This document shows, piece by piece, positions 14,172 to 30,004 of a DNA stretch of 64,000 nt; position 1 is the first letter of the stretch; every line of letters begins with the position of its first letter. The stretch is from NCBI GenBank assembly GCA_026388095.1, contig JAPLKL010000041.1, forward strand, positions 36,016 through 100,015, in the 5' to 3' direction. The notes under the pieces were generated by a model. It ran no database searches and was not told the DNA's origin. It worked only from the letters and a program-made list of their open reading frames with translations. Made by a program: the position numbers and the translations under genes. This DNA is from Elusimicrobiota bacterium (GTDB lineage Bacteria; Elusimicrobiota; Elusimicrobia; UBA1565; UBA9628).

Positions 14172-15082
14172 CAGAATCCCAGGCCTCCCGAGATGAGCGA
14201 CTTCATCATCGGCGCCAGCATCAGGATGAACACCGTGGGGAAGATGAAGATGAAGAGCGGGATGAGCATCTTGGTGGAGGCCTGGGCCGCGAGCTTCTCG
14301 GCCTTGTTGAGCCGGCGGAAGCGCATGTCCGTGGCGTAGTTGCGCAGGAGCTCCACCAGGCTGGTGCCCAGTTCGTCGGATTGGATGATGAGCCCCACGA
14401 AAGAGCGGATCTCCTGCACGCCCGTGCGCATGGCCAGGCGCTTGAGGGCGTCGCGGCGGGAGTAGCCCAGCGAGATCTCGTTGATCATCTTGCCCAGCTC
14501 GACTTCGAGCTCGGTCTTGGCCTTGGCGTTCTTGAGGATGCGGTCGATGGCGGTCATGTAGTCCAGGCCGGCCTCGATGGTGAGCGCGGTCAAGTCCACG
14601 AAGGTCGGGAAGTTGCGCATGATCTCGGTCTGCCGGGCCTTGATCTTTCCGTTGAACAGGGAGTCGGGGATGAAGAAGCCGACCAGGCCGAAGATCCCCA
14701 GGATCGGCGAGCCGGTCATGAAGTAGATGAAGCCGGTCAGTCCGGCGGCCAGCATCTCCTTGAGATGCAGCATATCCAGGGGAGAGGGCTTGTTGGGCCT
14801 GCCCATCATCATGTGCATCTCCTCGAGCTTGACGTCGAGGTGGAAGGTCCTGAGCAGGAAGAGGTCGATGCGGTCGAGCAGGCCGCCTTGCGGGTTGAGG
14901 CCCGAGAAGGCCGAGCTCATGCCCAGGTCCTTCTTGGCCAGCAGGGCCAGGTCGGACTTGTCCACATCGGGCGGCGGGGCCAGCAGCCGATGGATGGAGG
15001 TGTAGGCGGCCACCGACCCCAGCACCCCCACCACCAGGAGCAGGAAATGCACGAACTGGCCGCTCAGCAGGGTGTCGCTCAT
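14171..15082 (-). CDS. tadC: Flp pilus assembly protein TadC (T2SS F-domain inner-membrane platform protein).
   Basis: The protein has a T2SSF-type topology of about 300 aa, with one N-terminal TM and two C-terminal TMs (LIPLFIFIFPTVFILMLAPMM). It overlaps tadB by 4 nt. Confidence 0.85.
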   Translation of the reverse strand: MSDTLLSGQFVHFLLLVVGVLGSVAAYTSIHRLLAPPPDVDKSDLALLAKKDLGMSSAFSGLNPQGGLLDRIDLFLLRTFHLDVKLEEMHMMMGRPNKPSPLDMLHLKEMLAAGLTGFIYFMTGSPILGIFGLVGFFIPDSLFNGKIKARQTEIMRNFPTFVDLTALTIEAGLDYMTAIDRILKNAKAKTELEVELGKMINEISLGYSRRDALKRLAMRTGVQEIRSFVGLIIQSDELGTSLVELLRNYATDMRFRRLNKAEKLAAQASTKMLIPLFIFIFPTVFILMLAPMMKSLISGGLGF

Positions 15083-16590
15083 ACCTGGACATCCCCCAGC
15101 TTATTGACGATCTTCATGCCGATGGCGATCCACATCGTGCAGAACATGAGCACGCAGACCCCCAGCGGCGTGAAGTAGAAATCCTTCATCGGGCCCGGCT
15201 GGAAGGCGAACATGATGAAGAACATGACCCAGGGCATGACCCCCACCACGATGGCCTGGATGCGCTGCTGCGCGGTCATGGCCGCGGTCTTCTCGATGAG
15301 CTTGGTCTCCTCGCGGATGTTCTCCACGATGCGGTCGAAGATCTTGGTGAGGTTGCCCCCGACCTGGCGCTGGATGACCACGGCCTTGATCATGTAGGAG
15401 AGCAGCCGACTCTGCACGCGCTCCTCGACGCCCTCCAGCGCCTTCTCCAGGCTGGTGCCCAGTTGGTAGTTCTTGATGCAGAGCCCGAACTCCTCGGAGA
15501 TGGGCGGCTGCAGGTCCCGGTGCACCAATTCGAGGCATTGCACGAGGTCGATGCCGGATTTGAGGCCGTTGGACATCAGGATCATGGCGTCCATGAGCTG
15601 GGCCTCGCACTTCATGCCCCGCCGCCAGCGGATGTTGCGCAGCAGCCAGCCGGGAAGGATGAGCCCCCCGTATACGCCGAACCCGGTGAAGATCAGGAAG
15701 CCGAAAGGATCGAAGGTCAGCAGGCCGATGAGGACGCCCAGGGCCGCCGGCCCCCCCACCAGATAGTTGACCTTGATGGTGATGAACTGGCGTTCGTAGT
15801 CATGCGCCCACTCCTTGGCCTTGACCTTGTAATCCGCGACGTACTTGGCGATGCGCGGCTCGTTGAGCGAGCCCACGAACCAGAAGGCCGCGAAGAACAG
15901 GGCGATGCCGCCCAGCTTGAAGAGCGTGGCCAGCGCCAGCGCGGTCTTGCGGTCCCCCGGGGGCTCCGGAGGCGCGTAGCCCCGCGGCATGCGGTTGAGC
16001 ACGCGGAAGGCGTTGTCGGTCAGGCCCCCGACGGCCAGGACCGCTTCCCGGTAGCGGTCGGCGTCCGACGAAGTCAACGCGTCTATGACGCTGTCCATCT
16101 CCTTGAGGATGAGGTCGAAATCGGCCATCACCGCCCGGCCGCGGCCGCCCAGAGAGCTGCCCAGATGCGCGCGGTAGAGGCGGTCCAAGGACATCTGGAA
16201 CCGGATGCGGTTGTCGGCGTAGTCGCGGATGAGGGCCCCGGGCTGGAGCAGCTGGCCGCCGTCGGAGGGCAGGAAGGTCTTGCGGGTGAGCTCGAAGAAC
16301 TCGTAGAGCACCGAGACCGGGGCCTGCCAGAGCTGGGCCTCGTTGATGACCCCCTCCTCCGGGTCCTGCCAGACCGGCCTCTTGAGCATGGCATCGAGGG
16401 TCGAGTCGATCCAGGAGGGCACCGGCAGGCCGGGGTCGCGGTCCTTCTTGAAATAGTGATAGATGATCTGGCTCTTGGCCTCGGCCCCGTCGGTCTTGTC
16501 CACCAGGAACTTGACCTCCGCGGGCGAGAAGATCTGCGCGCCCGCGGGCGCGGCCATGAGCCACAGGATGATCCCGAGCCAGGCTCTCAT
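15079..16590 (-). CDS. tadB: TadB-like T2SSF platform protein fused to an N-terminal signal-peptide-bearing periplasmic domain of about 230 aa.
   Basis: The N-terminus [19 protein letters not shown] is a signal peptide and is followed by about 230 aa of unknown sequence. The C-terminal half has the TadB/T2SSF topology (LVGGPAALGVLIGLL..., IVVGVMPWVMFFIMFAF...). Confidence 0.8.
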   Translation of the reverse strand: MRAWLGIILWLMAAPAGAQIFSPAEVKFLVDKTDGAEAKSQIIYHYFKKDRDPGLPVPSWIDSTLDAMLKRPVWQDPEEGVINEAQLWQAPVSVLYEFFELTRKTFLPSDGGQLLQPGALIRDYADNRIRFQMSLDRLYRAHLGSSLGGRGRAVMADFDLILKEMDSVIDALTSSDADRYREAVLAVGGLTDNAFRVLNRMPRGYAPPEPPGDRKTALALATLFKLGGIALFFAAFWFVGSLNEPRIAKYVADYKVKAKEWAHDYERQFITIKVNYLVGGPAALGVLIGLLTFDPFGFLIFTGFGVYGGLILPGWLLRNIRWRRGMKCEAQLMDAMILMSNGLKSGIDLVQCLELVHRDLQPPISEEFGLCIKNYQLGTSLEKALEGVEERVQSRLLSYMIKAVVIQRQVGGNLTKIFDRIVENIREETKLIEKTAAMTAQQRIQAIVVGVMPWVMFFIMFAFQPGPMKDFYFTPLGVCVLMFCTMWIAIGMKIVNKLGDVQV

Positions 16591-18878
16591 TTGGGCGCCG
16601 TCCCCGGCGGCGGGGGGCCTCCGCCGGAACCCTTCTTCTTCTTGGTCTCGTCGCTCTCGTACATCTCGCGCGGCATCTTGATGCCCTTGAGTTTGAACTC
16701 CTCATGGAAGCTCGGGACGTAGTCCTGGCCCGTGTAGTAGCCGACGCTGCGGCCCTGCTCGTCCACGGACACCTGCTTGAACCGGAAGATGTCCTTGGTC
16801 TTGACCTGGTTGCCGTCCTTGCCCGTGATCTCCGTGATGTAGGTGACCCGGCGCTTGCCGTCCGAGAAGCGGGTGATCTGCACGATCATATGGACGGCGC
16901 TGGAGATCATGTCGACCAGGACGCTCATGGGCAGTTCGGTGCCCGAGAACAGGCACATGGCCGAGAGGCGCGAGACGGCGTCGTTGGGGGTGTTGGCGTG
17001 GATGGTGGCCAGCGACCCTTCGTGGCCGGTGTTCATGGCCTGGAGCATGTCCAAGGCCTCGCCGCCGCGGCACTCGCCGACCACGATGCGGTCGGGGCGC
17101 ATGCGCAGGCAGTTCTTGACCAGGTCGCGGATGGTGATCTCGCCCTTGCCCTCGATGTTGGGCGGCCGGCTCTCCAGGCGCACCCAGTGCTCCTGCATGA
17201 GCTTGAGCTCGGCCGTGTCTTCCACCGTGACGATGCGCTCGTCCTCCGGGATGAAGTTGGAGAGCATGTTGAGGAAGGTGGTCTTGCCGGTGCCGGTGCC
17301 CCCCGAGATGATGATGTTCTTGCGCAGCAGCACGCAGTCCTTGAGGAACTCGATCATGTCCGGGGAGACCGAGCCGAAGCCGATGAGCTGCTTGTAGGTG
17401 AAGGGCTTGGCCGAGAAGCGCCGGATGGTCAGGCTGGGCCCGGAGACGGCCAGGGGCGCGATGATGGCGTTGACGCGCGAGCCGTCCTTGAGGCGGGCGT
17501 CCACCAGCGGCACCGACTCGTCGATGCGCCGGCCGATGGGGGCCACGATGCGCTTGATGACCTGGATGACCTGCTCGTCGCTGCGGAAGCGGTTGGGCAG
17601 GAGCACCAGCTTGCCGGCCCGCTCGATGTAGATGTGGTCGAAGGAGTTGACCATGATCTCGTTGACGGTGGGGTCGCGCATGAGGGCCTGCAGGGGCCCC
17701 AGGCCCAGGATCTCGTCGACCAGCTCGCCGACGAACTGCTCGCGCTGCGCGCGCGAGAGCGGCAGGTTCGCCTCCCGCTGCAGGAGGTTCTCGATGATGG
17801 AGGAGACCTTCTTGTGGTTCTCGTCGTTCTGCCCCACGTCGTCCGAGATGCGGATGCGCTCGGTCTCCATGGCGGTCACGACCTGCTTGTGCATCTTGGT
17901 CTTGAGCTCGTCCCAGAACTCCGGGATCCCCGCGGCGGCCGCCGCCCCCGCCCCCGCGGTCTTGTTCGTCTCCGCCGCCGCGGTCTTCGCGGCGGTGCCG
18001 CCGCCCGCGCTGCCCTGGGGCTTCCAGAGGAAGTCGGCGCCCTCGCTGAACTCCTCGGCCGGCATGTAGCTCTCCCAGGACTTCGGGGTGGGCTTGAGCT
18101 CCATGGTCCGGCCCAGGATGATGCGCAGGGTCTTGACCCACTCGCTCTGCAGGTTCTCGACCACGAGGATCTTCTGGGTGTTGGCGTACTCGGGGAGCAG
18201 GTCCTCCCAGGGCATGTAGGCCAGGACCTTCTTCTGCATGGCGCTGAAGAACCGGTCGACCTCCTTGGGCGCCAGCGCCCCGGGGAGGTTCGCCGCGTTG
18301 ACGATGACCTCGAACTTCTCCAGGGGGAAGTGCAGGGCCTTGATCTCCTGGAACATGTTGTAGGTGGCCTCGAAATGGGCGCGTTGGGGCAGACAGACCC
18401 AGTAGATGAGGTCGGCCAAGTCGAAGGAGAAGATCTGCATCGGGAAGAAGGGGTCCACGTCCAGGAACAGGTCGTAGGCCTCGGCGAGCGAGCCCAGGAT
18501 CTGCACCACCAGCTGCGGGGAGAGGCTCAGAATCTCGGAGCGCTTGGCGGCCAGGGGCAGCAGGCCGACCCCCCACTGGGTCATGGGGATGCGGCCCTTG
18601 AGGAGCCTGCCCAGGCCGGTGGGGTTGTCCCCGACGAGCTGCGCCATGCTGGCCACGGTCGGCGGGTTGACCCCGAGCAGGTAGGAGATATCGTTGCGGC
18701 AGAGGGGGTCCATGTGGACGATGATGACCTTCCGGTTCTGGCTGCCGGCCCAGGCCAAGGCCAGGTTGAGGCACAAGGTGGTCTTGCCGACCCCTTCCTT
18801 GGGGCCGGTGAACACGAGCACCCGGCTCGGCTCCTTGGCGAGCCGCCCGGTCTCAGTCTCGGGCTTGACTTCTGCCAT
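16587..18878 (-). CDS. Fusion of a TadZ/CpaE-like ParA/MinD-type ATPase domain with the CpaF/TadA secretion ATPase (VirB11/PilB family).
   Basis: The N-terminal ~280 aa carry a deviant Walker A motif ([17 protein letters not shown]). An Ala/Gly-rich linker follows. The C-terminal half has the CpaF Walker A ([15 protein letters not shown]), Walker B ([12 protein letters not shown]), the Asp box and the His box ([12 protein letters not shown]). Confidence 0.85.
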
Positions 18879-18890
18879 GACGGCGCTCCC

Positions 18891-19643
18891 TTATTTGACG
18901 ATCTCCATGGTGATGAACAGGAACAGCGAGGACTGCGTCTCCACGACGCTCGAGCTGGTGAAGAGCAGTCCCAGAATCGGGATCCGGCCTATATAGGGTA
19001 CGCGCGTCTTGGTCACGTTCTTGGTGCTCGACTTCAGGCCCCCCAAGACCAGCGTCTCGCCGCTCTTGATCTCGACCGAGGTCTGGATCTGGCGGGTGAC
19101 GAAGGACGGCACCGTGGTGTTGCCCACCTGCACGGGCTTGGAGTAGTCCGGGTTGGAGACCTCCAGCTGCAGCTCCGCGCGGATGGTGTCCTTCTTGTTC
19201 GGGTTGATGACCGGCATGATGTTGAGGATGACCCCGTACTTCTTGAGCTCGACTCCCACGCTGCCCGTGGCCCCGGTCACCGGATAGGGCTGCTCGCCGC
19301 CGACCACGAAGTTGGCCTGCGATTGGGCCTGCACGATGACCTTGGGATTGGAGAGCAGCTGCGCCTTGCCTTCGGTCTCCAGCATCTTCAGCGAGGCCTG
19401 CAAGGCGGTCTGCCGGGCGAAGTCCCCGATCTTGTATATGCCGGGGATCTCCTTCTCCGCGAAGTTGATGCCGCTCTGCAAAGGTCCCCATGTGAAACCC
19501 GTGGACACATCCTTGGAGCCGGAAAGCTCCACGATATCCGCCGAGACCGCCACGAGGGAATCCTCGGGCTGGGCCCAGAGCTGCGCGCCGCCCAAAAGCA
19601 GCGCCAGCGAAAGCGACAGACGCCCTGACAGTTGTCTCAGCAT
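18891..19643 (-). CDS. cpaC: Secretin of the CpaC/RcpA family (outer-membrane channel of the Tad pilus); a short form.
   Basis: The signal peptide is MLRQLSGRLSLSLALLLGGAQLWAQP. The secretin C-domain carries hallmark motifs (VVGGEQPYPV, VSNPDYSKPVQVGNTTVPSFVTRQIQTSVEIKSGETLVLGGL, VPYIGRIPILGLLF). Confidence 0.8.
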   Translation of the reverse strand: MLRQLSGRLSLSLALLLGGAQLWAQPEDSLVAVSADIVELSGSKDVSTGFTWGPLQSGINFAEKEIPGIYKIGDFARQTALQASLKMLETEGKAQLLSNPKVIVQAQSQANFVVGGEQPYPVTGATGSVGVELKKYGVILNIMPVINPNKKDTIRAELQLEVSNPDYSKPVQVGNTTVPSFVTRQIQTSVEIKSGETLVLGGLKSSTKNVTKTRVPYIGRIPILGLLFTSSSVVETQSSLFLFITMEIVK

Positions 19644-19688
19644 GATGTCGTACCGTTGCGGCTCGAAACGCCTCTACGTCAGGTCCGG

Positions 19689-20444
19689 CTACTTGAACAG
19701 CTTGCGGAAACTCGCCATCTCCATCGGATGCATCTCCACGTCGCCCAGACCCCGCAGGACCACGGTCGTGTCGCCCTGCTTCATGGCCAAGGACAGGTAC
19801 TGCGCCTCGTTGGGGTTGAGCGCCAGCGCGATCATGGCCTTCTCCGAGAAGGCCGCGGTCTTGTCCTCCTTGTCCGTGGCGACCTTGGCCTGCTTGGCGT
19901 TCATCCCCTGGCCGAGGTTCGTCCCCACCGCGATGACCAGGACGTTCTGCAGGATGGTCGCCGTCACCCGCTCCTTGCGGCCGTCCGCCATCACGGCCTC
20001 GAAGGTCACCAGGACGTCCACGCGGTCGCCCGGCTTGATGAGGGGCTTGAGCTCGTTCTCGATGCCCAGGATGGCGCCGCGATAGCCCGGCGGGATCTTG
20101 ACGCTCAGGCCGGCCTCGGGAGACAGGGAGATCAGCGCCGACTGGCAGATCTGGTTGCCCTTGGGGACACGCACCCGGGTGACCAGGTTGGCGATGAGCT
20201 TGATGTCGGCCGGAGTCTTGACCTCGAAGGCGTCCTGCTCCATGAACTTGCGCGGGACCTGCATCGGCTCGGCCATCTCCTCCTTGAGCACGGTGCGCTC
20301 CGGGATGTCCACGCGGGCGACCAGGACCTGGCCGGTTTCATAGGCCGAGGAAAGCGCCCGCTCCTTGCTCGTGAGCACCATCAAGTAGAAGATGGCGGCC
20401 CCCATGGCCAGCACCATCGGCACCAATATCCCTTTCTTTTCCAT
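19689..20444 (-). CDS. cpaB: Flp pilus assembly protein CpaB/RcpC (SAF domain).
   Basis: There is an N-terminal TM (ILVPMVLAMGAAIFYLMVL), a SAF-like domain (LVARVDIPERTVLKEEM), and a C-terminal RcpC β-domain. Confidence 0.85.
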   Translation of the reverse strand: MEKKGILVPMVLAMGAAIFYLMVLTSKERALSSAYETGQVLVARVDIPERTVLKEEMAEPMQVPRKFMEQDAFEVKTPADIKLIANLVTRVRVPKGNQICQSALISLSPEAGLSVKIPPGYRGAILGIENELKPLIKPGDRVDVLVTFEAVMADGRKERVTATILQNVLVIAVGTNLGQGMNAKQAKVATDKEDKTAAFSEKAMIALALNPNEAQYLSLAMKQGDTTVVLRGLGDVEMHPMEMASFRKLFK

Positions 20445-20447
20445 AGT

Positions 20448-20915
20448 TCAGAAGGCCAGAGGCCTCTCGATGGGCATGCGCACCTCCGCCGAGATTGTGC
20501 ACCAGCCCCCGCCCGGCCCCTGCGGGCAGAGGATCGGCGACGACATCAGGATGCTGCTCAACGGGAAGACGAACTTGATCGGGTTGCTTCCCGTCACCAC
20601 GAGGTCTGCGTTGGTGACCTGCGCCTGAGTGTCCTGGAAGGAGTGGTAGTCCAAGGTGCAGGACACGGTCGCGGACTGGAGGATGCGTTTCATCAGAGGC
20701 ACCAAGCGGCCGCAGTCAGGCAACACCGTGCCGCTGGAGAGGCATTGGGTCATGGCCCCGATGCGGGCCACCTCGTAGGTGGCGTGGTTGAGCAGGATCA
20801 TCTGGAACGACATGTAGCCCATCTCCATGATCGTGAAGACGATGGTCAGGAAAATAGGCAGGACGAGGAGCATCTCCACGAGAACCTGCCCATGTTTCCA
20901 TCCCCTCTTCGACAC
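20448..20915 (-). CDS. TadE-like pseudopilin.
   Basis: The N-terminus MSKRGWKHGQVLVEMLLVLPIFLTIVFTIMEMG is a TadE-family N-terminal domain. Confidence 0.8.
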   Translation of the reverse strand: MSKRGWKHGQVLVEMLLVLPIFLTIVFTIMEMGYMSFQMILLNHATYEVARIGAMTQCLSSGTVLPDCGRLVPLMKRILQSATVSCTLDYHSFQDTQAQVTNADLVVTGSNPIKFVFPLSSILMSSPILCPQGPGGGWCTISAEVRMPIERPLAF

Positions 20916-20983
20916 GACCCCCCCTCGGGGCCCTCGCGGGCCCGCGTCTTTGCGTCAAACGGCGAGGCTGCAGCCTGCGGCTC

Positions 20984-21190
20984 TTAGTTGCCCTGCCCCA
21001 ACGACGTGGCGGCGCCTGAGATCATCTGCTGGATCGAGCTGAACAGACCCGGCATGAACCGCTTGAGCGCCACCCCGGCCACCAGCACGACGCCCACGAC
21101 CACCGTCAGCATCAGCAGATACTCTACGGTGTTCTGACCTTTCCGGCTCTTGAGCCACTTGCGCGCCGCTTCCACTCTCATCGTCATCAT
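20984..21190 (-). CDS. flp: Flp/Fap-family type IVb pilin (prepilin).
   Basis: The sequence MMTMRVEAARKWLKSRKGQNTVEYLLMLTVVVGVVLVAGVAL has a short basic leader, a G/xxxxEY processing motif and a hydrophobic helix. AGGAG lies 10 nt upstream of the ATG at 21190. In-frame ATGs also occur at 21187 and 21181. Confidence 0.75.
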   Translation of the reverse strand: MMTMRVEAARKWLKSRKGQNTVEYLLMLTVVVGVVLVAGVALKRFMPGLFSSIQQMISGAATSLGQGN

Positions 21191-21212
21191 ACGTTTCGCT
21201 CTCCTTGCACGA

Positions 21213-21380
21213 TCAGTAATAGGTCGAAAGAATCTTCTTGCCGGCCAGGATGAACAGCAGCTTCAACTGCCCCTGGATGAACCCGTACATGGCCGCGAAG
21301 CACGTCACCAAGACCATCGTGGTCAGGATGTACTCGACCGCAGCCTGTCCTTTCCGCCATCCCGGCATCTTCAGAGCCAT
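21213..21380 (-). CDS. flp: Second Flp-family pilin (55 aa), not in the ORF track because it is under 60 aa.
   Basis: Manual translation gives MALKMPGWRKGQAAVEYILTTMVLVTCFAAMYGFIQGQLKLLFILAGKKILSTYY*. It has the same leader-GQ-xxVEY-hydrophobic-helix architecture as the adjacent pilin. An alternative in-frame ATG at 21389 would give MTYMALK... Confidence 0.6.
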   Translation of the reverse strand: MALKMPGWRKGQAAVEYILTTMVLVTCFAAMYGFIQGQLKLLFILAGKKILSTYY

Positions 21381-21442
21381 GTACGTCATTGAGTGTATCA
21401 GCCACGGTTTTCCTTGTCAATAACCTTTCCATTAAAAATACA

Positions 21443-22417
21443 TTAAAACTTGACCTTAAAGGAGAATTGGTCGACGGTGCCGAGAGCTCCGTAAGGGACG
21501 TAGGCATAGTCCAGGGCGATGCCGTACCCGAAGGCCCGCGAGGTGAACAGCCCGAAACCGAAGGAAAGACCGGCGGTCCGGTCCATGCGCAGGTTCTTGA
21601 GCGTGCCGTCGAAGCTCTGGCCCAGGGTGTCCGCGTTGTAGTACCCCGCCCGGAACGTGACCTGCCCGACGTCGAGATACTGCTCGGGGAGCATGAATTC
21701 CCCGCCCACGCCGAAATGGGCTCCCGAGTCGGAGGCCTCATTGAGCTCCAGGCCGATATTGAAGAAGTCTCCCAGCCGCAGGGCCGCCCCGCCCCGCGTC
21801 GTGGCGGGGACGTTCTCCTTGTTGGTCCCGAAGTTCTGCACCGCGAATCCCAAGGTCAGCACGCTGTTGGGCTTGAGCAGGACGCCGAAATCGCCGACGA
21901 CCGTGTCGTGCACGCGGCTGGCGAGGTCCTCATGGACCAAGCGCACCGCGCCGCCCAGGAACAGCTTCTCGTACCAGAACGACCGCGCCATGCCGATGGA
22001 GCCGAATCCGTCGCGCACATTGATGTTCTCGCCGGTCTGGGGTACGCCGTTGGCGTCGCGCACGTCGAAGCCCGATACGCTCATGTAGGCGATGTTGGCG
22101 CCCCAGACCGTGCGGCCCATGGGATGGGCGTAGCCCAGATAGAGGGGCGAGTCCGTGTCCTGGACGTAGCGCAGGTAGGAGTAGACCAACTCCTTCTGCT
22201 GGGTCAGGGCCAAGCCGGCGGGGTTCCAGGTCAAGGCGTCGGCGCCCTCGGCCAAGGCCACGTAGGCCTTGCCCAGGGCCTGGGCCCGCGCCGAGCCCTG
22301 CTGGAGCTCCATGAACTGGGCGCCGCTGGTGCCGGCTTGATCGGAGATGGCCCAAGCCGCGGCCGGGCCGCCGAGCAGCCAGACGCATGCGAGCAGGGCC
22401 GTTATCCCGAGTCTCAT
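21443..22417 (-). CDS. Outer-membrane beta-barrel protein, PorV/PorQ/FadL-like.
   Basis: The signal peptide is MRLGITALLACVWLLGGPAAAWA. The conserved N-terminal motif GSARAQALGKAYVALAEGADALTWNPAGLA matches the PorV/PorQ/FadL-like barrel family. Alternating hydrophobic β-strands follow, and the C-terminus is an aromatic residue (FSFKVKF). The start abuts the stop of the giant upstream gene. Confidence 0.65.
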   Translation of the reverse strand: MRLGITALLACVWLLGGPAAAWAISDQAGTSGAQFMELQQGSARAQALGKAYVALAEGADALTWNPAGLALTQQKELVYSYLRYVQDTDSPLYLGYAHPMGRTVWGANIAYMSVSGFDVRDANGVPQTGENINVRDGFGSIGMARSFWYEKLFLGGAVRLVHEDLASRVHDTVVGDFGVLLKPNSVLTLGFAVQNFGTNKENVPATTRGGAALRLGDFFNIGLELNEASDSGAHFGVGGEFMLPEQYLDVGQVTFRAGYYNADTLGQSFDGTLKNLRMDRTAGLSFGFGLFTSRAFGYGIALDYAYVPYGALGTVDQFSFKVKF

Positions 22418-25400
22418 CGCACCAGGAATTTCTTCACCGTCTGCAGGATGTTCCTGCTGCCGTCCGTGGCTTCGGCCCGGAATACCGCGTAGTACAACCC
22501 GCGCGCCACCCGGCGGCCGGCGGAGTTGGAGCGGGTCCAGGCGAAGCACGGGACGCCGCCCGCCGTGGAGCCCCCGCTGACGTAGTTATTGGCCTGCTGC
22601 TCCCCGAAGTCCTTGTCCAGGACCAGCTCGCCGCTCATGGTGTAGAGCTTCATCTTGACGTCGGCCTGGAACGGCGAGAAGATGACGATGTTGGCGCTGT
22701 CGCCGTCCACGGGGTTGGGGTAGATGTAGGTGTTTCGCTCGAAATCCCCTTTGGGATCAGCGGACTGGTTGCGCACCACGGCGACCTCGTCGAGCGGCCG
22801 GTCCTCGGCCAGCTCCAGCGGGAAGATCACGTTGCCCGTCATATTGTCGATGGCGCTCATGTCCGTCGAAGCCACGATGCTGAATTTGTAATTCCCGTCG
22901 GGGGTCGCGCCCAGGCGCAGATCGGTGCCGTCCCAGGTCTCGGTGACCTCCGTGCGGCCCGGCCGCACGCCCACGATGCGCTTGACCAATGACACGGCCT
23001 CGGGCGGCGACGGGTTGCCGTTGCCGTCGAAGACGGTCCCTGGGCGGTAGATCTTGACCGACACCTTCATGGTCGCGGAGACCTGGTAGAGGATGCGCGC
23101 CCCCTCCGAGCCGTTGGTCAGCGGCGCGATGGCCACGTCGTAGATGCGCAGCGGGTCGTAGGCGATGGTCATCTGGGCCGTGGAGGGCTGGTTGAGCTGG
23201 GAGGCCACGTCCTGGGCCACGCCGCGCACCAGGTAGAAGCCGGACGGCGGGAAGTTGCCCTTGTCGTCCCGGCCGTCCCAGACGTCCTCCAGCAGCAGGC
23301 CGCCGTCGCGCACTCCCCCCAAGATGACCGAACGCACGACCTGGTTGGGGACGTTGTTGTTGAGGATCTGGATGGTGACCGAGGATTGGCGGGTGAGTGC
23401 GTAGCTGATGGTGAAGGGGTCCAAAGTGATGCTGGAGCTGGAGTTGAACATCTGCGGCACGGTCGGAGTCACGTTGAAGGTGGTGAAGATGATCGCGCCG
23501 CGGCTGACGGTCACGCTCCCGAAGACCCGGTCCGTGGCGTAGTACTGGGGAGTCGTCGTGGACTGCGCGACCAAGGTGAAGACGTAGCTGCCGTCCGGGA
23601 CCAGCAGTCCGTTGGCGTCCCGGCCGTCCCAGTATTCGGTGATGCGCATGCGGCCGGGCCGCATCCCGTGGTAGCTGATGAGGGGCCCGATCTTGCCGCC
23701 TTGGGAGTCCACGGTGTTGTCGCAGACGGTGGTGGACATGCCGCAGGGCGGCCAGGTGGAGGTGCTGTTCTTGATGACCGTGCCCGGGGAGTAGATGTTC
23801 CACACCACGTTCATGGGCTGGGAGAGTTGATAGTTGAGCGAGACCGAATCCGAGGTCCCGGCCATGAGCGGCGTGGTCACCACGTCCGTGATGCGGAACA
23901 GGTCAACCGGGAAAGACGACGACACCGTCGAGACCTTCATGGTGCACAAAGGGTCCGCGGCGGTCAGCTGGACGATGTAAGTGCCCGAAGTGACCCAACG
24001 GCCGGTGTTGTCCACCGCGTCGCCCCATATCTCCTGGTTGGCGAACAAGCCGGGCCGGACCACGTTTTCGGCGAGGGTCCTGACCAAAGTGGTCCCGTCG
24101 GCCTGGAAGATCTTCACGCTCGCGATGGCGTCGCGGCCGAGCTGATACCGGAACACGAAGGGATTGAGGCCGCTGATGGCCGGGCTGGAGCCGATGACGG
24201 TGGGGCTGGCGGCGATCTGGCTGAGGCCCACGTTGCCCCGCACCACCGGCATGAAGCCAGTCTGGGCCTTGGTCGTCCAGATGCGGCGGTCTTGCACGCT
24301 GCTGATGAAGGGGCTCCCGTTCTGCGAGGGCAGGGCGGCGTAGATCACGAAGACGTAGTCGCCGTCCGTGCAGACCGCGTTGCCGTTCATGTCCCGGCCG
24401 TCCCAGAAGGTCAACGCGGAGCCGCGGCCGGCCTTGATCTCCTCGAAATGGCGCACCAGGGGAGCCGGGGACGAGTTCGGGCCGGTGCAGGCGCCTATGT
24501 AGGGTTTGAAGTCCTTGGGTCCGTGCACCCACTCGAACCCGCCGGAGATGACTGGGCCCGCCCGGTCCAGGTTGACCGGGTCATTGACATTGTTGAGGTT
24601 GCCGCAGAACTGGGTGTTAGGAGGATAGATGTCTATATACACCGTCGCCGGCTCGGTGAGGGTGTAGCTCAAAGTCGCCAAAGACGTCGCTGAGCCCGCC
24701 AGAGGCGCGACCCTGAGGTCCGTGATCTGGAGGGGGTCCAAGCTGATCTGCCGCGTGGTCGGGTAGGACAGGTCGCCCCCGTACTGGTCAACGGCGAAGG
24801 CCTGCAAGGTCGCCAGGAACACCCCGGGGGGCAGGAGATCCCCGTTGTCTGCGCGGCCGTTCCAGGCATCGCCGTTGAGCAAGGTCCCGTTGGGCGTGCC
24901 CTCGCCCACGCGCGCCACGCCCGGCAGCACGGAGCGCAGCACCGCGCCGCTGTCCGGGTCGGTGACGGTGATGTACATCGAGGCGTCCTTGGAGAGCCGG
25001 TAAGTGATGTTGTAGGGCTCCACGTAGACCCCGGCGCTGCCCACCACCGTGGGAGAGGAGCGCACCACGTGCACGTTGGTGACGTCCACCTGCACGGGCT
25101 TCTGCAGGACGAAGAGCGCGTTGGCATCCATGGTGGCTCCCGCCGGATAGGCGCGCTGGGCCGTGATGGTGATGTTGCCGCTGGAGCCGGTCTGGTTGGT
25201 CTGGGCCGTGATGCGGAATCCGTACTGTCCGTTGGTCTTGCCCAACTCGCCCTGGATGCTGACTGCGCCGTCCCAGAGCACGCAGTAGGGTTTCACACCG
25301 CTCGTGGTGGAGTTGGTGTAGGGAGCCAGGACCCCGGGGGCGTCCACGAAGAAGGTGCGGATCGGCGGGGTGGAGCCCGCATCCAGGGGGTTGGCCCCGT

Positions 25401-25911
25401 CCTGGAACTTGAAAATCTCGAACTCCACCATGTCCAGGGCCACGGTGTCGGAGCCCGGGTTGTTGTAGCCGATCCCGGCGCAGAGGAAGACGTCGGAGTT
25501 GCAGATGTTGTTGCCGTTGACTGCGTCGCCGGCAGGGGAGTTGGCGGCGTCGCAGTTGGACAGCACCGTGGAGCTGCGCTGGTCGAACTCGATGTGGGGG
25601 TCGTTGGAGATGTTGCCATTCTGCGGCTGCAATCCCGAGACATCAGTGGGCGAAGTCGGGTTGATGTCCCCGCAATAAGTGGTGCCGCCCAGTTGGCAGT
25701 TGGACGAGCCGTCCAGACAGAAGAAGTGCTTCGTGAACGCATTATAATAGCAGTAGAAGCCGCTGTCCTTGACCACGAAGGACTGATCGATGAAGAGCTG
25801 GACCTGGCCCTGAGCGAAGAGGCGGGAGGGCAGGAGGAGGGACAGGAGGGCGGCGCCGTAGAAAGCCTGCGCCGCCCCCATGCCGCTTCGATGTCGGTTC
25901 ATAGAACGCAT
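22414..25911 (-). CDS. Giant secreted protein (~1165 aa) with six FlgD-Ig-like repeats and a T9SS-type (Por_Secre_tail-like) C-terminal sorting domain.
   Basis: The signal peptide is MRSMNRHRSGMGAAQAFYGAALLSLLLPSRLFAQG, followed by a Cys-rich N-terminal region. Six repeats carry the W(D/N)GRDxxGxxxPxGxYxF motif (TFWDGRDMNGNAVCTDGDYVFVIY, EYWDGRDANGLLVPDGSYVFTLVA, DVWDGRDDKGNFPPSGFYLVRGVA, ETWDGTDLRLGATPDGNYKFSIVA and others). The C-terminal ~90 aa (YIYPNPVDGDSANIVIF...VKMKLYTMSGELV...RGLYYAVFRAE...KKFLVR) match the T9SS sorting-domain consensus. The ATG at 25911 is chosen; a GTG lies at 25914. Confidence 0.8.
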   Translation of the reverse strand: MRSMNRHRSGMGAAQAFYGAALLSLLLPSRLFAQGQVQLFIDQSFVVKDSGFYCYYNAFTKHFFCLDGSSNCQLGGTTYCGDINPTSPTDVSGLQPQNGNISNDPHIEFDQRSSTVLSNCDAANSPAGDAVNGNNICNSDVFLCAGIGYNNPGSDTVALDMVEFEIFKFQDGANPLDAGSTPPIRTFFVDAPGVLAPYTNSTTSGVKPYCVLWDGAVSIQGELGKTNGQYGFRITAQTNQTGSSGNITITAQRAYPAGATMDANALFVLQKPVQVDVTNVHVVRSSPTVVGSAGVYVEPYNITYRLSKDASMYITVTDPDSGAVLRSVLPGVARVGEGTPNGTLLNGDAWNGRADNGDLLPPGVFLATLQAFAVDQYGGDLSYPTTRQISLDPLQITDLRVAPLAGSATSLATLSYTLTEPATVYIDIYPPNTQFCGNLNNVNDPVNLDRAGPVISGGFEWVHGPKDFKPYIGACTGPNSSPAPLVRHFEEIKAGRGSALTFWDGRDMNGNAVCTDGDYVFVIYAALPSQNGSPFISSVQDRRIWTTKAQTGFMPVVRGNVGLSQIAASPTVIGSSPAISGLNPFVFRYQLGRDAIASVKIFQADGTTLVRTLAENVVRPGLFANQEIWGDAVDNTGRWVTSGTYIVQLTAADPLCTMKVSTVSSSFPVDLFRITDVVTTPLMAGTSDSVSLNYQLSQPMNVVWNIYSPGTVIKNSTSTWPPCGMSTTVCDNTVDSQGGKIGPLISYHGMRPGRMRITEYWDGRDANGLLVPDGSYVFTLVAQSTTTPQYYATDRVFGSVTVSRGAIIFTTFNVTPTVPQMFNSSSSITLDPFTISYALTRQSSVTIQILNNNVPNQVVRSVILGGVRDGGLLLEDVWDGRDDKGNFPPSGFYLVRGVAQDVASQLNQPSTAQMTIAYDPLRIYDVAIAPLTNGSEGARILYQVSATMKVSVKIYRPGTVFDGNGNPSPPEAVSLVKRIVGVRPGRTEVTETWDGTDLRLGATPDGNYKFSIVASTDMSAIDNMTGNVIFPLELAEDRPLDEVAVVRNQSADPKGDFERNTYIYPNPVDGDSANIVIFSPFQADVKMKLYTMSGELVLDKDFGEQQANNYVSGGSTAGGVPCFAWTRSNSAGRRVARGLYYAVFRAEATDGSRNILQTVKKFLVR

Positions 25912-25965
25912 CACCCTAGCAGTGCCAAAATAGCCTAAATCTGTTTCCGGAGTATTACCGGCATG

Positions 25966-27975
25966 TTAAAAAATTGTGAAGAGGCGCCAGCCGACTCGGT
26001 AGCGCGCCAGCGCGAAGCCCTGCCGCCGCGCCGACGGCCCCGCGAGCACCAGGATATCCTCGGTCTTCGACCCGGCCCCTGCCCCGTCAGCCTGGGCCGC
26101 CGTCAAGCCGACGACGTTCTCATCCAACGCGACGGCCCAGGCCGGCGCGAAGGCTTCGTTGGCGAGGTCGAACGCCATGAGCCGCCGGCTGCGGGAATCC
26201 CAGAGCCAGAGGCGGCCCCCCAGCCACTGCATGGCGGCGGGCAGGACGTCGGCTTCCAGCGGATAGGCCTTGGCGTCGGTCTCCTCGGCTCCGTGCCGGT
26301 AGAGGCGCTTGTTGAAGGCGTCGTAGGACCACAGGGCCTGGCCGTCCCAGGCGAGCGCCGTGGGCGCGGGCCCGGGCGCCGGCTTGGCGTAGAGCACGGT
26401 CCCGGGGTCATCCGGCTGGTGGCGGACGATGCGGGCCTGGGCGGCGTCCAAGGTGTAGAACCGCTCTCCGCCCAAGGCCAGGGCCACGGGTCGGTAGGCG
26501 CCGATGCCTGAGACGCTCGCGCTGCTCACGGGCGCCCGGAGGTCCGCAGGGTCGAAAGCCTCCAGGGTCCCCTTCCAATCCGACACCCACAGGCGCTTCC
26601 CGTCGGACGCCAGCGCGGTCGGGTGGTCCAGAGCCAGGCCGCGGGTGGTCAGCGGCTTGAGGCTCCATGCGCTCAGCCAGCGTCCCAGAGGCCACGCCGC
26701 GGCCAGGAGCAGGCCCGCCGCGACCGCCGCCGGCCCGAGCCAGCGCCGCCGCGGCGCGGCGGCGCGCAAGGGCGCGCCGTCCCCGGAGGGCTGGCGTTCT
26801 CCGTTCCCGGAGGGGGCCGGGAGCTTGCGCTCCAGCTCGGCGACGCGTTCCATCACCGCGGCCAGCTTCTGGGAAGCGGCCGAAGCCTCGGGCAGGCTGC
26901 GCGCAAGCTGCTCCGCGGGCTTGACCGGGGCTTGGTCTTTGGCCGAAACCTCGGCGCGCGAGGCCTCGCGCTCCTTGCGCAGGCCCTCTTCCCAGGCCGA
27001 CCGTTCCTGGCGCAGGCTCTCATCCCGGGCGGCGAGCTCGAGGCGCCGGGCCTCCCAGGCCTCGCGCTCCTTGCGCAGGTTCTCCTCCCACGCGGCGAGC
27101 TCGAGGCGCCGGGCCTCCCAGGCCTCGCGCTCCTTGCGCAGGTTCTCCTCCCAGGAGGAGAGCTCGAGGCGCCGGGTCTCCCGGGCCGAGCGCTCCTGGT
27201 CCCAGAGCTCGCGCCACTGCCCGCGCTCCTTCTCCCAGACGCGGGAGAGATCCTCGCAGCGCCCTTCCACCTCCGCGATCCTCTTGACCGCCTGGGATTG
27301 CTCGCCTTCGGACTCCTGATGCGCGTGCCGCTCGCGCAGGAGCTCGGCCAGCGTCTTCTCCAGGGCCGCTTGGGTCTGCTCGAGGCCCGTCGAGAGGCGC
27401 GCCGCCGCGTCCTCGGCCCGCTGGGAATCCTCCTGGCGGCGGGCGGCCGCAGCCTGGAGCTCCTGCAGGTCCAGCAGATACTGCTGCTCTTTCTTCTCCC
27501 AGCGCCGCTGCTCCTCTCGCCAGCGGGCGCCTTCGGCTCCGGCCGATTCGCGCGCGGCGTCGACCAGGGCCTTGAGGTCCCGGCGCTCGGCCTCGTGCGC
27601 GGCGCGCTCGTCGGCGAGGGCCTTCTGCGCGGCCTCCAAGCGGGAGCCCACGTCGAGGACCTCGGCGACCACGAGCTCGTCGTCGGCGCGCACCTTCTGG
27701 CGCAGGGAACCCAGCTCGGTCTCCAGCAAGGCTTGGCGTTCCTTCAGGGCGCGCAGCGCCTTTTCCCGGGCCTCCAGGAGCTCGTGCCAGCGGGCTTCCT
27801 GGCGGCGGTACTGGCTCTTGAGCATGGCCACCGTCTCCCAGGCCACTTCGTTGGCCGTGGCCACGGATGCGGCAGGCGTCGGCGCGGGGTCGGCCGGGGC
27901 GGCGGAGGCCGCGCCGACCTTCTCCCAGAGCCGGCTGATCTCCTTGTGCAGGTCGTCCGGAGAGGCTTTTTCCAC
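25966..27975 (-). CDS. Bitopic membrane protein with a long cytoplasmic coiled coil (tandem 21-aa repeats) and a periplasmic beta-propeller-like C-terminal domain.
   Basis: The start is a GTG (MEKASPDDLHK...). The first ~400 aa are charged coiled coil with the repeated unit RRLELAAWEENLRKEREAWEA. A single TM (LGPAAVAAGLLLAAAWPLGRWL) follows. The C-terminal ~200 aa have W-rich repeat motifs (LWVSDW, LWSYDAFNKRLYRH, RLWLWDSRSRRLMAFDL). Confidence 0.65.
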   Translation of the reverse strand: MEKASPDDLHKEISRLWEKVGAASAAPADPAPTPAASVATANEVAWETVAMLKSQYRRQEARWHELLEAREKALRALKERQALLETELGSLRQKVRADDELVVAEVLDVGSRLEAAQKALADERAAHEAERRDLKALVDAARESAGAEGARWREEQRRWEKKEQQYLLDLQELQAAAARRQEDSQRAEDAAARLSTGLEQTQAALEKTLAELLRERHAHQESEGEQSQAVKRIAEVEGRCEDLSRVWEKERGQWRELWDQERSARETRRLELSSWEENLRKEREAWEARRLELAAWEENLRKEREAWEARRLELAARDESLRQERSAWEEGLRKEREASRAEVSAKDQAPVKPAEQLARSLPEASAASQKLAAVMERVAELERKLPAPSGNGERQPSGDGAPLRAAAPRRRWLGPAAVAAGLLLAAAWPLGRWLSAWSLKPLTTRGLALDHPTALASDGKRLWVSDWKGTLEAFDPADLRAPVSSASVSGIGAYRPVALALGGERFYTLDAAQARIVRHQPDDPGTVLYAKPAPGPAPTALAWDGQALWSYDAFNKRLYRHGAEETDAKAYPLEADVLPAAMQWLGGRLWLWDSRSRRLMAFDLANEAFAPAWAVALDENVVGLTAAQADGAGAGSKTEDILVLAGPSARRQGFALARYRVGWRLFTIF
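27034..27222. repeat. In-frame 63-bp tandem repeat array inside the coiled-coil gene: two perfect copies at 27034-27096 and 27097-27159, with degenerate flanking copies.
   Basis: The unit GAGCTCGAGGCGCCGGGCCTCCCAGGCCTCGCGCTCCTTGCGCAGGTTCTCCTCCCACGCGGC repeats exactly twice. Diverged copies lie at about 26971-27033 and 27160-27222. The array encodes the 21-aa unit of the coiled coil. Confidence 0.85.
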
Positions 27976-28069: not shown

Positions 28070-30004
28070 ATGATATCATGGCCGCTGATGGACCGCGAAG
28101 AATCCTCCCCCTGGAGTTGTCTCATCGCGGCCGCCCTCCTGGCCCAGATGCTCTGGCTCGGGGCCAACACGGCCTACGATCCGGACACTTGGTGGCACCT
28201 CAAGACCGGGCAGCTGGTCTTCCAGACCCATTCCATCCCCACGCGCGACCCCTACTCCTACGTCCTGGCGGGCCGGCCCTGGACCACCTTCGAGTGGCTC
28301 TTCCAGGTCGTCATCTACCTCGCCTACGCCGGGGCCGGCGCGGCCGGCGTGGCCGCGCTGCGCGTGGGCCTGCTGGCCGGAGCATTCCTGCTCCTCCTGC
28401 GCTTGGCGGGCGGCGGGTTCTGGGCCGGCATCCTGACTTCTTTGGCCGCGCTGGCGGCCAGGGATTTCTTCGTGACCAGACCGCAGGTCTTCGACTACCT
28501 CCTGCTCGTATTCTATCTCTCGGTGGTCGACCGCTGCCGCGGCCGGCCGGGCCGCCTGGCCTGGCTGCTGCCCGGCCTGCAGGTCCTCTGGGTCAACCTC
28601 CACGGAGGGGCGGCGCTTCTGGGAGTGGGGTTAGTGGGACTCAGAGCGGCGGTCGCCGCCCTGCCGGGACAGAGGCAAGACAGAGCCCTGGGGCCCTGGC
28701 TGACCCTGACCGGAGCCTGCCTGGCAGCCATGCTCGTCAATCCCCACGGGCCCGGGATATTCACCCATGCCTACGCGACCCTCTTCTTCCCCGGCCAGGA
28801 GCTGATCAACGAATGGCGGCCGGTGGCCTCTCTGCTGAGTTGGCAGGGGGCGTGCCTCGCCGTGGGGGCCGTGGCCGCGGTCTGGTCCTGGGAGTCCGAA
28901 CCGCACCTGGCTCTGACCGCTTTGGTCCTGGGCGTCATGGGCTGCCTCCAGGTGCGGCATGTGTCTTTGGCCATGCTGGCCGCGGCGCCCCTGGCCGCCC
29001 GGCTGCTCGCGCGCCTGCGGCCCGTGCCCATCGGCCGACGCTCGGCCCTGGGCGCCGTCGTGGTGATGGCCGCCTGGTCGGCCCTCTTCATCCATCAGCG
29101 CGTCGGGTACCTGGAGAACGTCGGCGCGGGCCTGGAGGAGCTGCCGGACCGGGCCATCCGGTATCTCGACGACAACGACGTCTCGGGCCGGATGTTCCAC
29201 ACCTACAACATGGGCGGGTATCTCATCTGGAAGACCTGGCCGCGCCGGCAGGTCTTCGTGGACGGCCGCAACGTGGAGTATGGCCCGGACTTCATCGCGC
29301 AGGCTCTGAACTGGACTCGCCCGGAGGTCTGGCCGCGGCTCGACGCCCAGTGGCGGTTCGACTACGCCGTCATCGGGAACTCCCCGGGCTACGTGGCTGA
29401 GGTCCTGGACGACTCGCCGCAATGGGCCCTGGTCTTCTGGGACGACGCGGCCCTGGTGTACCTGAGGCGCACGCCGGCCAACGCCGCCCTCATCCGGCGC
29501 GACGCCTACCGCCTGCTCAAGCCCAACCAACTCACCTTCGCCTATCTCGCCGAGGACCTGCGCGACCGCCGCAAGGCCGCGGCCGTGCTGGCCGAACTCG
29601 ACCGCTCCGTGCGATCTTCGGACCGCAACGTGGACGCCTGCCAGATGCGGGCCTACGTCCTCTCCGAGCTGGGCCGCCCCGCGGACGCCGTCCGGGACCT
29701 GCAGGGCGTCATCCGACGCTTCCCGCGCAAGCCCGGCCCGTACATGTCTCTGGGCTGGTTCCATGAGCGGGCGGGACGTCTTTTGGCGGCGCGGCAGGTC
29801 TACGAGGAAGGGGTGCGCATGGCGAAGTGGAACTCGGACCGGACCTCGCGGGCCTTTCTGGAGAATAACCTCGGATCCATCGAGCTGCGGCTCGGCAACC
29901 GCGAACGCGCCCGCGAGCTGTTCGAGGACTGCTTGGCGCTGGAGCCCAGCCATCCCCAGGCTCGGCGCAACCTCCAGATCTTGGATCAGTCCGCTAAGAA
30001 GTAG
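28070..30004 (+). CDS. Polytopic GT-C-type membrane protein (glycosyltransferase-like) with C-terminal TPR repeats.
   Basis: About 10 predicted TM helices span the first ~330 aa. A periplasmic domain follows (YNMGGYLIWKTWPRRQVFVDGRNVEYGPDF). The C-terminus carries TPR repeats (DACQMRAYVLSELGRPADAVRDLQ..., LENNLGSIELRLGNRERARELFEDCLALEPSHP). Confidence 0.65.
   Translation: MISWPLMDREESSPWSCLIAAALLAQMLWLGANTAYDPDTWWHLKTGQLVFQTHSIPTRDPYSYVLAGRPWTTFEWLFQVVIYLAYAGAGAAGVAALRVGLLAGAFLLLLRLAGGGFWAGILTSLAALAARDFFVTRPQVFDYLLLVFYLSVVDRCRGRPGRLAWLLPGLQVLWVNLHGGAALLGVGLVGLRAAVAALPGQRQDRALGPWLTLTGACLAAMLVNPHGPGIFTHAYATLFFPGQELINEWRPVASLLSWQGACLAVGAVAAVWSWESEPHLALTALVLGVMGCLQVRHVSLAMLAAAPLAARLLARLRPVPIGRRSALGAVVVMAAWSALFIHQRVGYLENVGAGLEELPDRAIRYLDDNDVSGRMFHTYNMGGYLIWKTWPRRQVFVDGRNVEYGPDFIAQALNWTRPEVWPRLDAQWRFDYAVIGNSPGYVAEVLDDSPQWALVFWDDAALVYLRRTPANAALIRRDAYRLLKPNQLTFAYLAEDLRDRRKAAAVLAELDRSVRSSDRNVDACQMRAYVLSELGRPADAVRDLQGVIRRFPRKPGPYMSLGWFHERAGRLLAARQVYEEGVRMAKWNSDRTSRAFLENNLGSIELRLGNRERARELFEDCLALEPSHPQARRNLQILDQSAKK

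Follow-up and report, generated by a model that had tools for sequence, protein, structure and literature searches.

The DNA considered here comprises 64,000 nucleotides (nt) of contig JAPLKL010000041.1 (positions 36,016 to 100,015 of the forward strand) from the assembly GCA_026388095.1 of an Elusimicrobiota bacterium, and this whole stretch is called the window below. On its minus strand, directly upstream of a gene for a protein of 1166 residues (aa) and of the genes for a Tad/Flp pilus, lies a gene for a bitopic membrane protein of 669 aa which carries, within its coiled coil, a tandem array of 63-bp units, and it is with this gene, with its family and with the possible function of its product that we are concerned. 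The parts of the gene, in the order in which they are translated, are the following.

25966..27975, minus strand: gene for the 669-aa bitopic protein (list of open reading frames; GTG start; the coordinates include the stop codon)
27913..27960, minus strand: short conserved N-terminal helix, aa 6-21, with the motif DL..E...LW..V (AlphaFold and family alignment)
27328..27846, minus strand: long helix 1, aa 44-216, coiled-coil-like, of variable length among homologs (AlphaFold, predicted local distance difference test, pLDDT, of 72-93)
27112..27237, minus strand: core motif of the family, aa 247-288 (family alignment and heptad register)
26990..27197, minus strand: tandem array of a 21-aa (three-heptad) unit (Tandem Repeats Finder; direct-repeat family D1)
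27174-27112, minus strand: unit 1 of the array, peptide RRLELSSWEENLRKEREAWEA
27111-27049, minus strand: unit 2, peptide RRLELAAWEENLRKEREAWEA
27048-26986, minus strand: unit 3, peptide RRLELAARDESLRQERSAWEE
26985-26950, minus strand: partial unit 4, about 33-36 nt, peptide GLRKEREASRAE
26956..27114, minus strand: in-frame insertion of 159 nt (53 aa) with respect to every homolog, its boundaries ambiguous within the repeat
26743..26946, minus strand: linker next to the membrane, aa 344-411, whose end is an Arg-rich stop-transfer stretch (pLDDT and alignment)
26674..26736, minus strand: single transmembrane helix, aa 414-434, with the N-terminal side inside (AlphaFold; K/R bias of the flanks)
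25987..26667, minus strand: periplasmic five-bladed beta-propeller, aa 437-663 (AlphaFold and Foldseek)

The open reading frame at 25966-27975 is intact (669 aa from a GTG, and 23 full-length homologs can be aligned with it from this start on), and the model of the complete protein was obtained with AlphaFold2 from an alignment of 24 family members. In it, the conserved N-terminal helix is followed by a Pro-rich linker of low confidence (aa 22-43), and this by two long helices, helix 1 and a second one at aa 223-347, both mostly at pLDDT 80-94. These helices are unbroken and have the 3.5-residue hydrophobic periodicity of a heptad coiled coil, which is pronounced in helix 2 (z = 5.1, reached by 0.2% of shuffles, with a best period of 3.55) and weaker in helix 1, where a periodicity of 3.5-3.6 is significant only in aa 44-130; the profile of the family, compared with the sequences of the PDB, matched only generic coiled coils (dynactin, myosin, ELKS). 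We infer that the cytoplasmic rod is probably dimeric. The linker that separates it from the membrane falls below pLDDT 50 at aa 344-371 and 379-411, is probably flexible according to the model, and is the fastest-evolving part of the gene, with a nonsynonymous divergence (dN) of 0.335 and 55% identity to the closest relative that was found, locus L086. Three Pro (from Q, F and R) have been gained just after the repeat, in the linker, with respect to close relatives.

Across the 24 family members, the 15 residues before the transmembrane helix contain on average 3.8 K or R, against 1.7 after it, and the 669-aa protein has no signal peptide; because of this bias and of this absence, the rod is placed in the cytoplasm and the C-terminal domain in the periplasm. 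We are thus dealing with a bitopic inner-membrane protein made of a cytoplasmic region of about 410 residues, a transmembrane helix and a periplasmic propeller of about 230 residues, an anatomy which a first-pass annotation of the window had already proposed, and which the model, the periodicity and the K/R bias bear out.

Modelled alone, the C-terminal domain is all-beta (pLDDT 89.3; predicted template-modelling score, pTM, 0.86), and its motifs LWxxDW, LWSLDAAQ, PGPAPxALAxDG..LWSYDA and MQW.GG.LW are conserved in the family. The top matches in Foldseek were the glutaminyl cyclases 2iwa, 3mbr, 3nol and 3nok, which are five-bladed (E about 1e-9 to 1e-7), followed by the sensor domain of PknD, YncE, NHL domains and BamB, while the fold search with the full-length model returned propeller matches only and was uninformative for the rod. 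At the level of sequence, the distant relatives of the propeller are Vgb_lyase, SGL or DUF6923 repeats found in large secreted proteins, and a few family members give weak matches to PQQ_2/BamB, NHL or SGL. The type II glutaminyl cyclases resemble the domain of the family in being five-bladed propellers of about 235-255 residues (template-modelling score 0.67-0.72); however, the identity is 8-17%, and 0 of 19 family members match the corresponding family PF05096 (Glu_cyclase_2) at E <= 1; the sequences lend no support to an enzyme. This similarity is best read as a shared fold and not as a shared activity, and the propeller itself is read as a binding platform of a common fold.

In the cytoplasmic half, conservation is concentrated in the core motif, which no other segment of the protein equals in conservation: it holds seven of the nine invariant columns (E250, R251, W254, W258, W275, E276 and L279), together with 11 of the 24 columns that are nearly invariant. 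Its consensus is W..ER.QWRELWD.ERS.WE.QR.E...WEE.LR.ERE.W, and the fuller form, WEAER.QWRELWDRERS.WETQR.EF..WEE.LR.ERE.W, is found at aa 247-288 of the window's protein with the deviations R260Q and W265R. If W275 is placed at position d of the heptad, the Trp at 247, 254, 258, 265 (in the homologs), 275 and 286, as well as F272 and L279, all fall on positions a or d, and in this register the aromatic residues form a seam along one face of the helix. The repeat unit of 21 aa is the second, C-terminal half of this motif. Compared with its closest homolog, the gene has a ratio of nonsynonymous to synonymous substitution (dN/dS) of 0.33 overall and of 0.18 in helix 1, and the neighbouring gene has one of 0.47; judged by these substitutions, the coiled-coil gene is functional and under purifying selection. 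The allele of the window deviates from close relatives at conserved sites (26890-26960 and 27180-27200), in R260Q, in W265R, in a change of W to S in the final motif and in the three Pro already mentioned.

The family to which this protein belongs is without a model in Pfam and NCBIfam, where only a sub-threshold match to the coiled-coil family DUF6444 was obtained, which we treat as spurious. A HMMER search of 1.84 billion representative proteins gave 891 matches, of which about 25 are full-length homologs (565-640 aa, with an equal order of parts); 23 full-length homologs align end to end (about 580-640 aa) at 22-78% identity, and the length of the coiled coil is free in the family, helix 1 having gained or lost 20-60 aa and the linker varying as well. 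From a single genome for each of 185,579 species, 124 relatives were obtained, members of the Elusimicrobiaceae (such as L079 and L080) among them, by means of a pattern that the allele of the window, with its Q260, does not match, so that the source genome could have been missed; the 80 relatives that were kept all come from metagenome-assembled genomes (MAGs) of Elusimicrobia or Elusimicrobiota, or from unclassified “bacterium” bins. The database entries of the family are all named “hypothetical protein,” and the literature describes neither the family nor the Elusimicrobial operon, noting only that the phylum has Tad systems.

Some members of this family deserve separate mention. The homolog P0022 of locus L019 (MAG CAIKVT01) is truncated, to about 316-332 aa, its frame ending just past the core motif; the downstream operon is intact there, and a frameshift or an assembly error is possible. 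MAG JACRDS01 (NC_groundwater_1678) contains two complete loci on separate contigs, L006 and L007, each with the coiled-coil gene, FlgD-Ig, PorV-like, RcpC and TadZ-CpaF genes, either by duplication or from two strains in the bin. The four homologs in NCBI MAGs that were recovered with a C-terminal query (4/4) are “partial”: their contigs stop shortly before the transmembrane helix. A variable or rearranging region was considered as the reason for such breaks and rejected, as the missing halves lie on other contigs of the same MAGs with overlapping ends (39 bp for L064/L002 and 16 bp for L067/L004; L001 and L005 are also split). The breaks recur in an extremely GC-rich stretch that codes for Arg and Ala (about 26740-26790 in the window), and not at the repeat; they are breaks of assembly, through which the proteins in the databases look partial.

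Downstream of the gene, and divergently upstream of it, the window contains the following.

22414..25914, minus strand: secreted 1166-aa protein with FlgD immunoglobulin-like (Ig) repeats and a C-terminal type A sorting domain of the type IX secretion system (T9SS) (Pfam, NCBIfam)
21443..22549, minus strand: gene for an outer-membrane barrel of the PorV/PorQ family (NCBIfam NF033709 PorV_fam, 94.7 bits, cutoff 90)
15079..21389, minus strand: core of the Tad/Flp pilus (Pfam, translation, gene order), made up of the six entries that follow
21213-21389 and 20984-21190, minus strand: Flp-type prepilins, with the motif KGQAAVEY in the first
20448-20915, minus strand: TadE
19689-20444, minus strand: RcpC/CpaB
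18891-19643, minus strand: secretin, 250 aa
16587-18878, minus strand: TadZ-CpaF fusion
15079-16590, minus strand: TadB/C-type platform protein
28070..30004, plus strand: polytopic membrane protein with C-terminal TPR repeats, divergent (Pfam TPR)

All the elements by which a Tad/Flp locus is recognized are at hand, namely a prepilin with a G/XXXXEY motif, TadE, RcpC, the secretin, TadZ, an ATPase of the CpaF type and TadB/C. When the proteins encoded next to the gene in the window were used as tblastn queries on the loci of the family, the same order was recovered: the family gene, the FlgD-Ig gene (about 1100-1200 aa), the PorV-like barrel, the Flp pilins, TadE, RcpC, the secretin, TadZ-CpaF and TadB/C. 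Of the 63 loci whose sequence continues for 3 kb or more downstream, 56 have a FlgD-Ig gene on that side; among loci with a sufficiently long flank, RcpC is present in 45 of 51 and TadZ-CpaF in 41 of 48. Independent gene calls agree on the order (L001, L002, L004, L005, L086, L087); in the window, the gap to the next gene is 51 bp and has no terminator-like site. The product of the gene is an accessory component dedicated to the Tad/Flp pilus locus of the Elusimicrobia, and the conserved association with Tad genes on which the first-pass annotation had made its interpretation depend does exist. The position that it had reported, upstream of a “giant adhesin” and of the Tad genes, also holds, while for the “adhesin” what can be said is that it is a secreted protein with FlgD-Ig repeats and a T9SS type A sorting domain. 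The notable result of this analysis is the family itself, whose members are unannotated proteins, accessory to Tad and confined to one phylum, which combine an invariant Trp zipper with a periplasmic propeller of five blades.

Among the neighbours, the 1166-aa protein is assigned by Pfam FlgD_ig (E = 9.5e-21) and NCBIfam TIGR04183 (28.4 bits, cutoff 23), and its C-terminus matches the sorting domain of PorZ; translation of the barrel gene probably begins inside the listed open reading frame, near 22417, and its product would then have about 324 aa, like those of L086 and L087. Anchoring parts of T9SS type together with a Tad machine are an unusual pairing, conserved in most loci of the Elusimicrobia. 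The TadZ-CpaF fusion (763 aa; about 761-780 aa in related loci, where it is kept) comprises a ParA/CbiA domain at aa 22-233 and a T2SSE domain at aa 392-675, without an N-terminal receiver-like domain such as canonical TadZ has; therefore, the function of localization would be left to another protein, and a separate positioning factor is plausible. The platform is a single protein of 503 aa with one clear T2SSF domain (15079-16590), and not separate products of tadB and tadC genes. The TPR membrane gene stands divergently upstream in the window and in L006, L007, L011, L014, L015 and L019, and between the coiled-coil and FlgD-Ig genes in L048, L050, L055, L060, L062 and L076; beside it in the window is the gene for a TMEM260-like protein O-mannosyltransferase (30005-31564, minus strand), a neighbour that may point to glycosylation associated with the locus. 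At its distal end, the Tad operon has a gene for a 757-aa TPR protein with a 24-bp tandem repeat (2.1 copies, 88%) at 13074-13124, and just past the operon there is a gene for an OmpR-type response regulator (receiver and Trans_reg_C; 10373-11173, minus strand).

Turning to the repeat, Tandem Repeats Finder places the 63-bp array at 26990-27197 and counts in it 3.3 copies, which match at 88% and have no indels; with a score of 311 it is by far the strongest tandem repeat of the window (the runner-up scores 81). An in-frame array of 63-bp units had been noted from the first pass, and it is there, but it is not perfect: the two copies described as exact, at 27034-27159, differ at 3 positions. 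Units 1 and 2 are identical at 60 of 63 positions, 1 and 3 at 50 and 2 and 3 at 51, and the longest exact run at an offset of 63 bp covers 62 bp (27029-27090 = 27092-27153). None of the homologs examined shares this expansion. The columns of the insertion in the alignment (427-479) are gapped in 23 of 23 homologs, one copy is present in all 80 genome loci and in 5 metagenome loci, and the motif is single-copy in 108 of 108 other homologs examined. One of the 5 metagenome loci is L086, which at 84% nt identity is the nearest sequence that was found (DNA alignment with L086, L007 and L009).

The insertion supplies two more units and a partial fourth, which copy the second half of the core motif, and the composition of the array is A-B, A-B, A-B, B', from which one duplication of 11 aa and two of 21 aa can be deduced. 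The synonymous divergence (dS) is 0.07 between units 1 and 2 and 0.38 between units 2 and 3, noisy estimates from 21 codons, and also 0.38 between the window and L086; these values suggest that the array grew stepwise over a long time, and not by rapid slippage. Judged by its uniqueness among the sequences, the array is not a feature of the family; in the lineage of the window, the second half of the core motif has been duplicated in frame and in steps. With the insertion, helix 2 grows from about 72 residues to 125, a gain of ~8 nm if the helix is straight, and each chain has about three copies of the motif in place of one, a copy among the three having already degenerated; the net 53 aa (49 + 4) of the insertion keep the reading frame and shift the phase of the heptads by four residues (a stutter). 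Of the seven conserved positions of the half-motif, unit 2 keeps all and unit 3 five (W to R, E to D), and in partial unit 4 the Trp has given way to S. The expansion may have changed the valency or the reach of the protein, or it may be a nearly neutral redundancy.

The interpretation that we favor, with a probability of roughly 0.55, is that the protein, whose architecture resembles that of PodJ, would serve the Tad machine as a scaffold in the inner membrane, and that the repeat would be a lineage-specific duplication of its docking motif. The protein would organize the Tad machine across the inner membrane, as bitopic coiled-coil scaffolds do in type IV-like pili. In the cytoplasm, the Trp/Arg/Glu motif of the rod (aa 247-288) could dock or position the TadZ-CpaF motor or the TadB/C platform, the Trp seam being a candidate surface for docking or for oligomerization; in the periplasm, the propeller could contact RcpC and the secretin, or the PorV/PorQ-like barrel and the Ig-repeat protein with its sorting domain; and both sets of contacts would tie the machine together across the envelope. 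These partners are those that we infer. Since conserved homologs share the position at the Tad locus, the role in scaffolding or positioning that was first suspected is a reasonable one.

The closest analog is found in Caulobacter, where PodJ combines cytoplasmic coiled coils, a disordered region, a transmembrane helix and a periplasmic domain that modulates the biogenesis of pili, and directly recruits CpaE, that is, TadZ (PMC9684454). The family shares with PodJ the order of its parts (coiled coil, low-complexity or disordered linker, single transmembrane helix, C-terminal periplasmic domain), and differs from it in that the periplasmic part of PodJ consists of a TPR-like repeat and a peptidoglycan-binding domain where the family has a five-bladed propeller, and in that no Pfam or NCBIfam family is common to PodJ and the protein of the window. 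Moreover, podJ is not located in the cpa operon, PodJ also organizes PleC, PopA and FliG, and we know of no counterpart in PodJ of the invariant Trp motif; we thus propose an analogy, and do not claim membership or homology. The proteins of the FimV/HubP/TspA type are large bitopic proteins of the inner membrane, with a long, charged and partly coiled-coil cytoplasmic region, which position the pilus machinery and the secretin. They resemble the family in this respect, but their topology is opposite (FimV has its periplasmic LysM domain at the N-terminus), their domains are different, they are not specific to Tad, and no homology was found. As for the rod, streptococcal M proteins and other rods of variable length are also lengthened by in-frame tandem duplication of a heptad-compatible unit, in our case of 21 aa; however, the repeats of M proteins are exposed at the surface, polymorphic among strains and selected by immunity, whereas the segment of the window is cytoplasmic and duplicates the most conserved motif of its family, not a variable spacer.

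Several points weigh against the scaffold. Its role is deduced from gene order and from a predicted architecture, and the searches of Pfam, NCBIfam and the PDB gave no sequence similarity, whether to PodJ, to FimV or to any other family, beyond generic coiled coils and propeller repeats. Trp-filled a and d positions are unusual in a two-stranded coiled coil; the motif could instead lie against a membrane or belong to a bundle of another type. The loss of Trp in unit 3 and in the partial unit fits a neutral drift of redundant copies. Finally, in a sub-clade (L039, L040, L044, L045, L049, L068) and also in L069 the gene is away from the Tad genes, so that it is able to work, or at any rate to survive, without being part of the operon; the link with Tad is strong, not obligatory. 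In L040 the family gene follows a gene for a 325-aa TPR protein, and genes of fatty-acid metabolism flank it on the opposite strand.

The same architecture could be that of a transmembrane sensor or regulator, in which the propeller would bind a ligand from the envelope or the environment and the coiled coil relay the signal that switches the Tad motor on or off, a role in regulation and not in structure. Long dimeric coiled coils beside the membrane are common signal wires, the propeller resembles the extracellular domain of PknD (1rwi/1rwl, template-modelling score about 0.6) and YncE, and the OmpR-type response regulator is encoded at the far end of the locus (10373-11173); nevertheless, Pfam and NCBIfam recognize no output domain (kinase, cyclase, HAMP or anti-sigma) in the 410 cytoplasmic residues, the best conserved cytoplasmic element is about 70-125 residues from the membrane, and about 65 residues of low confidence, poorly conserved and variable in length, separate the coiled coil from the transmembrane helix and make a poor mechanical relay, all of which renders this possibility unlikely. 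We also find it improbable, if for other reasons, that the gene belongs to a module of surface display, with a propeller that chaperones or hands over the 1166-aa protein or the barrel, in the manner of BamB or of a PorV shuttle, and a coiled coil that anchors or clusters the complex. The three genes do form one uninterrupted block, with which the operon begins in those 56 of 63 loci, the two neighbours fall in the T9SS sorting-domain and PorV/PorQ families above curated NCBIfam cutoffs, and 5 of 19 propellers of the family give weak matches of PQQ_2/BamB type (best E = 3.4e-5), with BamB among the fold matches; but the gene of the unlinked sub-clade has no FlgD-Ig or PorV-like companions, and a purely periplasmic chaperone does not explain a cytoplasmic rod of 400 aa in which conservation is strongest.

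The array, for its part, invites two further explanations. Slippage and a ruler had been suggested at the outset. A contingency repeat in which slipped-strand mispairing or unequal recombination would frequently change the number of copies within populations, and so tune the length of the rod like a ruler, agrees with (i) the two in-frame 63-bp units that are 95% identical and overlap exactly over 62 bp, (ii) a unit of 21 aa, or three heptads, whose gain or loss as a whole keeps the register of the coiled coil, and (iii) the growth of the array in at least two or three steps. Yet more than one copy exists only in the lineage of the window, against 108 other homologs examined, the divergence of the units points to old stepwise duplications with slow turnover and not to active slippage, the segment is cytoplasmic and so outside the selection by immunity or phages typical of contingency loci, and the length of the rod, which a ruler would have to maintain, is not conserved and varies freely; this leaves the idea very improbable, and neither the ruler nor the slippage of the first-pass annotation finds support. 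That the extra copies come from the assembly, or that the gene is decaying, is scarcely credible, even if two Trp that are otherwise conserved are missing from the window's allele and three Pro have appeared in its linker, MAG assemblies of the gene often break, and the exact protein, looked up with V and with M at its first position, has no match among 153 billion gene positions. Conspecific alleles were not met with, and a scan of metagenomes for alleles gave only three relatives at about 70% identity, all of them single-copy. An assembler loop would give identical copies, whereas the units differ in frame by 3 and by 12-13 substitutions, and an exact repeat of 62 bp is shorter than ordinary reads and final k-mers; because of this divergence and this short exact repeat an artefact is unlikely, and the breaks in MAGs occur elsewhere, in the GC-rich juxtamembrane stretch, with contig ends that overlap. 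Decay, on the other hand, is at odds with an intact open reading frame, and a pseudogene was rejected on the dN/dS of 0.33.

Tad pili are widespread organelles of adhesion and colonization, and to our knowledge the way in which their motor is positioned, or coupled to the parts in the outer membrane, has been described only for a few Proteobacteria, notably with PodJ in Caulobacter. The family would offer a concrete candidate for the organization of the machine in a deep-branching and mostly uncultured phylum. As a bolder and tentative extension of the scaffold, which we consider doubtful, the family could be the missing trans-envelope organizer of a hybrid specific to the Elusimicrobia, made of a Tad pilus and a sorting-domain Ig protein anchored by PorV/PorQ, where the Trp zipper would dock TadZ-CpaF and the propeller would grip the outer-membrane module; if that were true, the triplication would be a natural experiment in the valency of docking sites and in the length of the rod. 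In any case, the repeat matters less than the family, and would mainly mark a segment that tolerates multiplication, or that may benefit from it.

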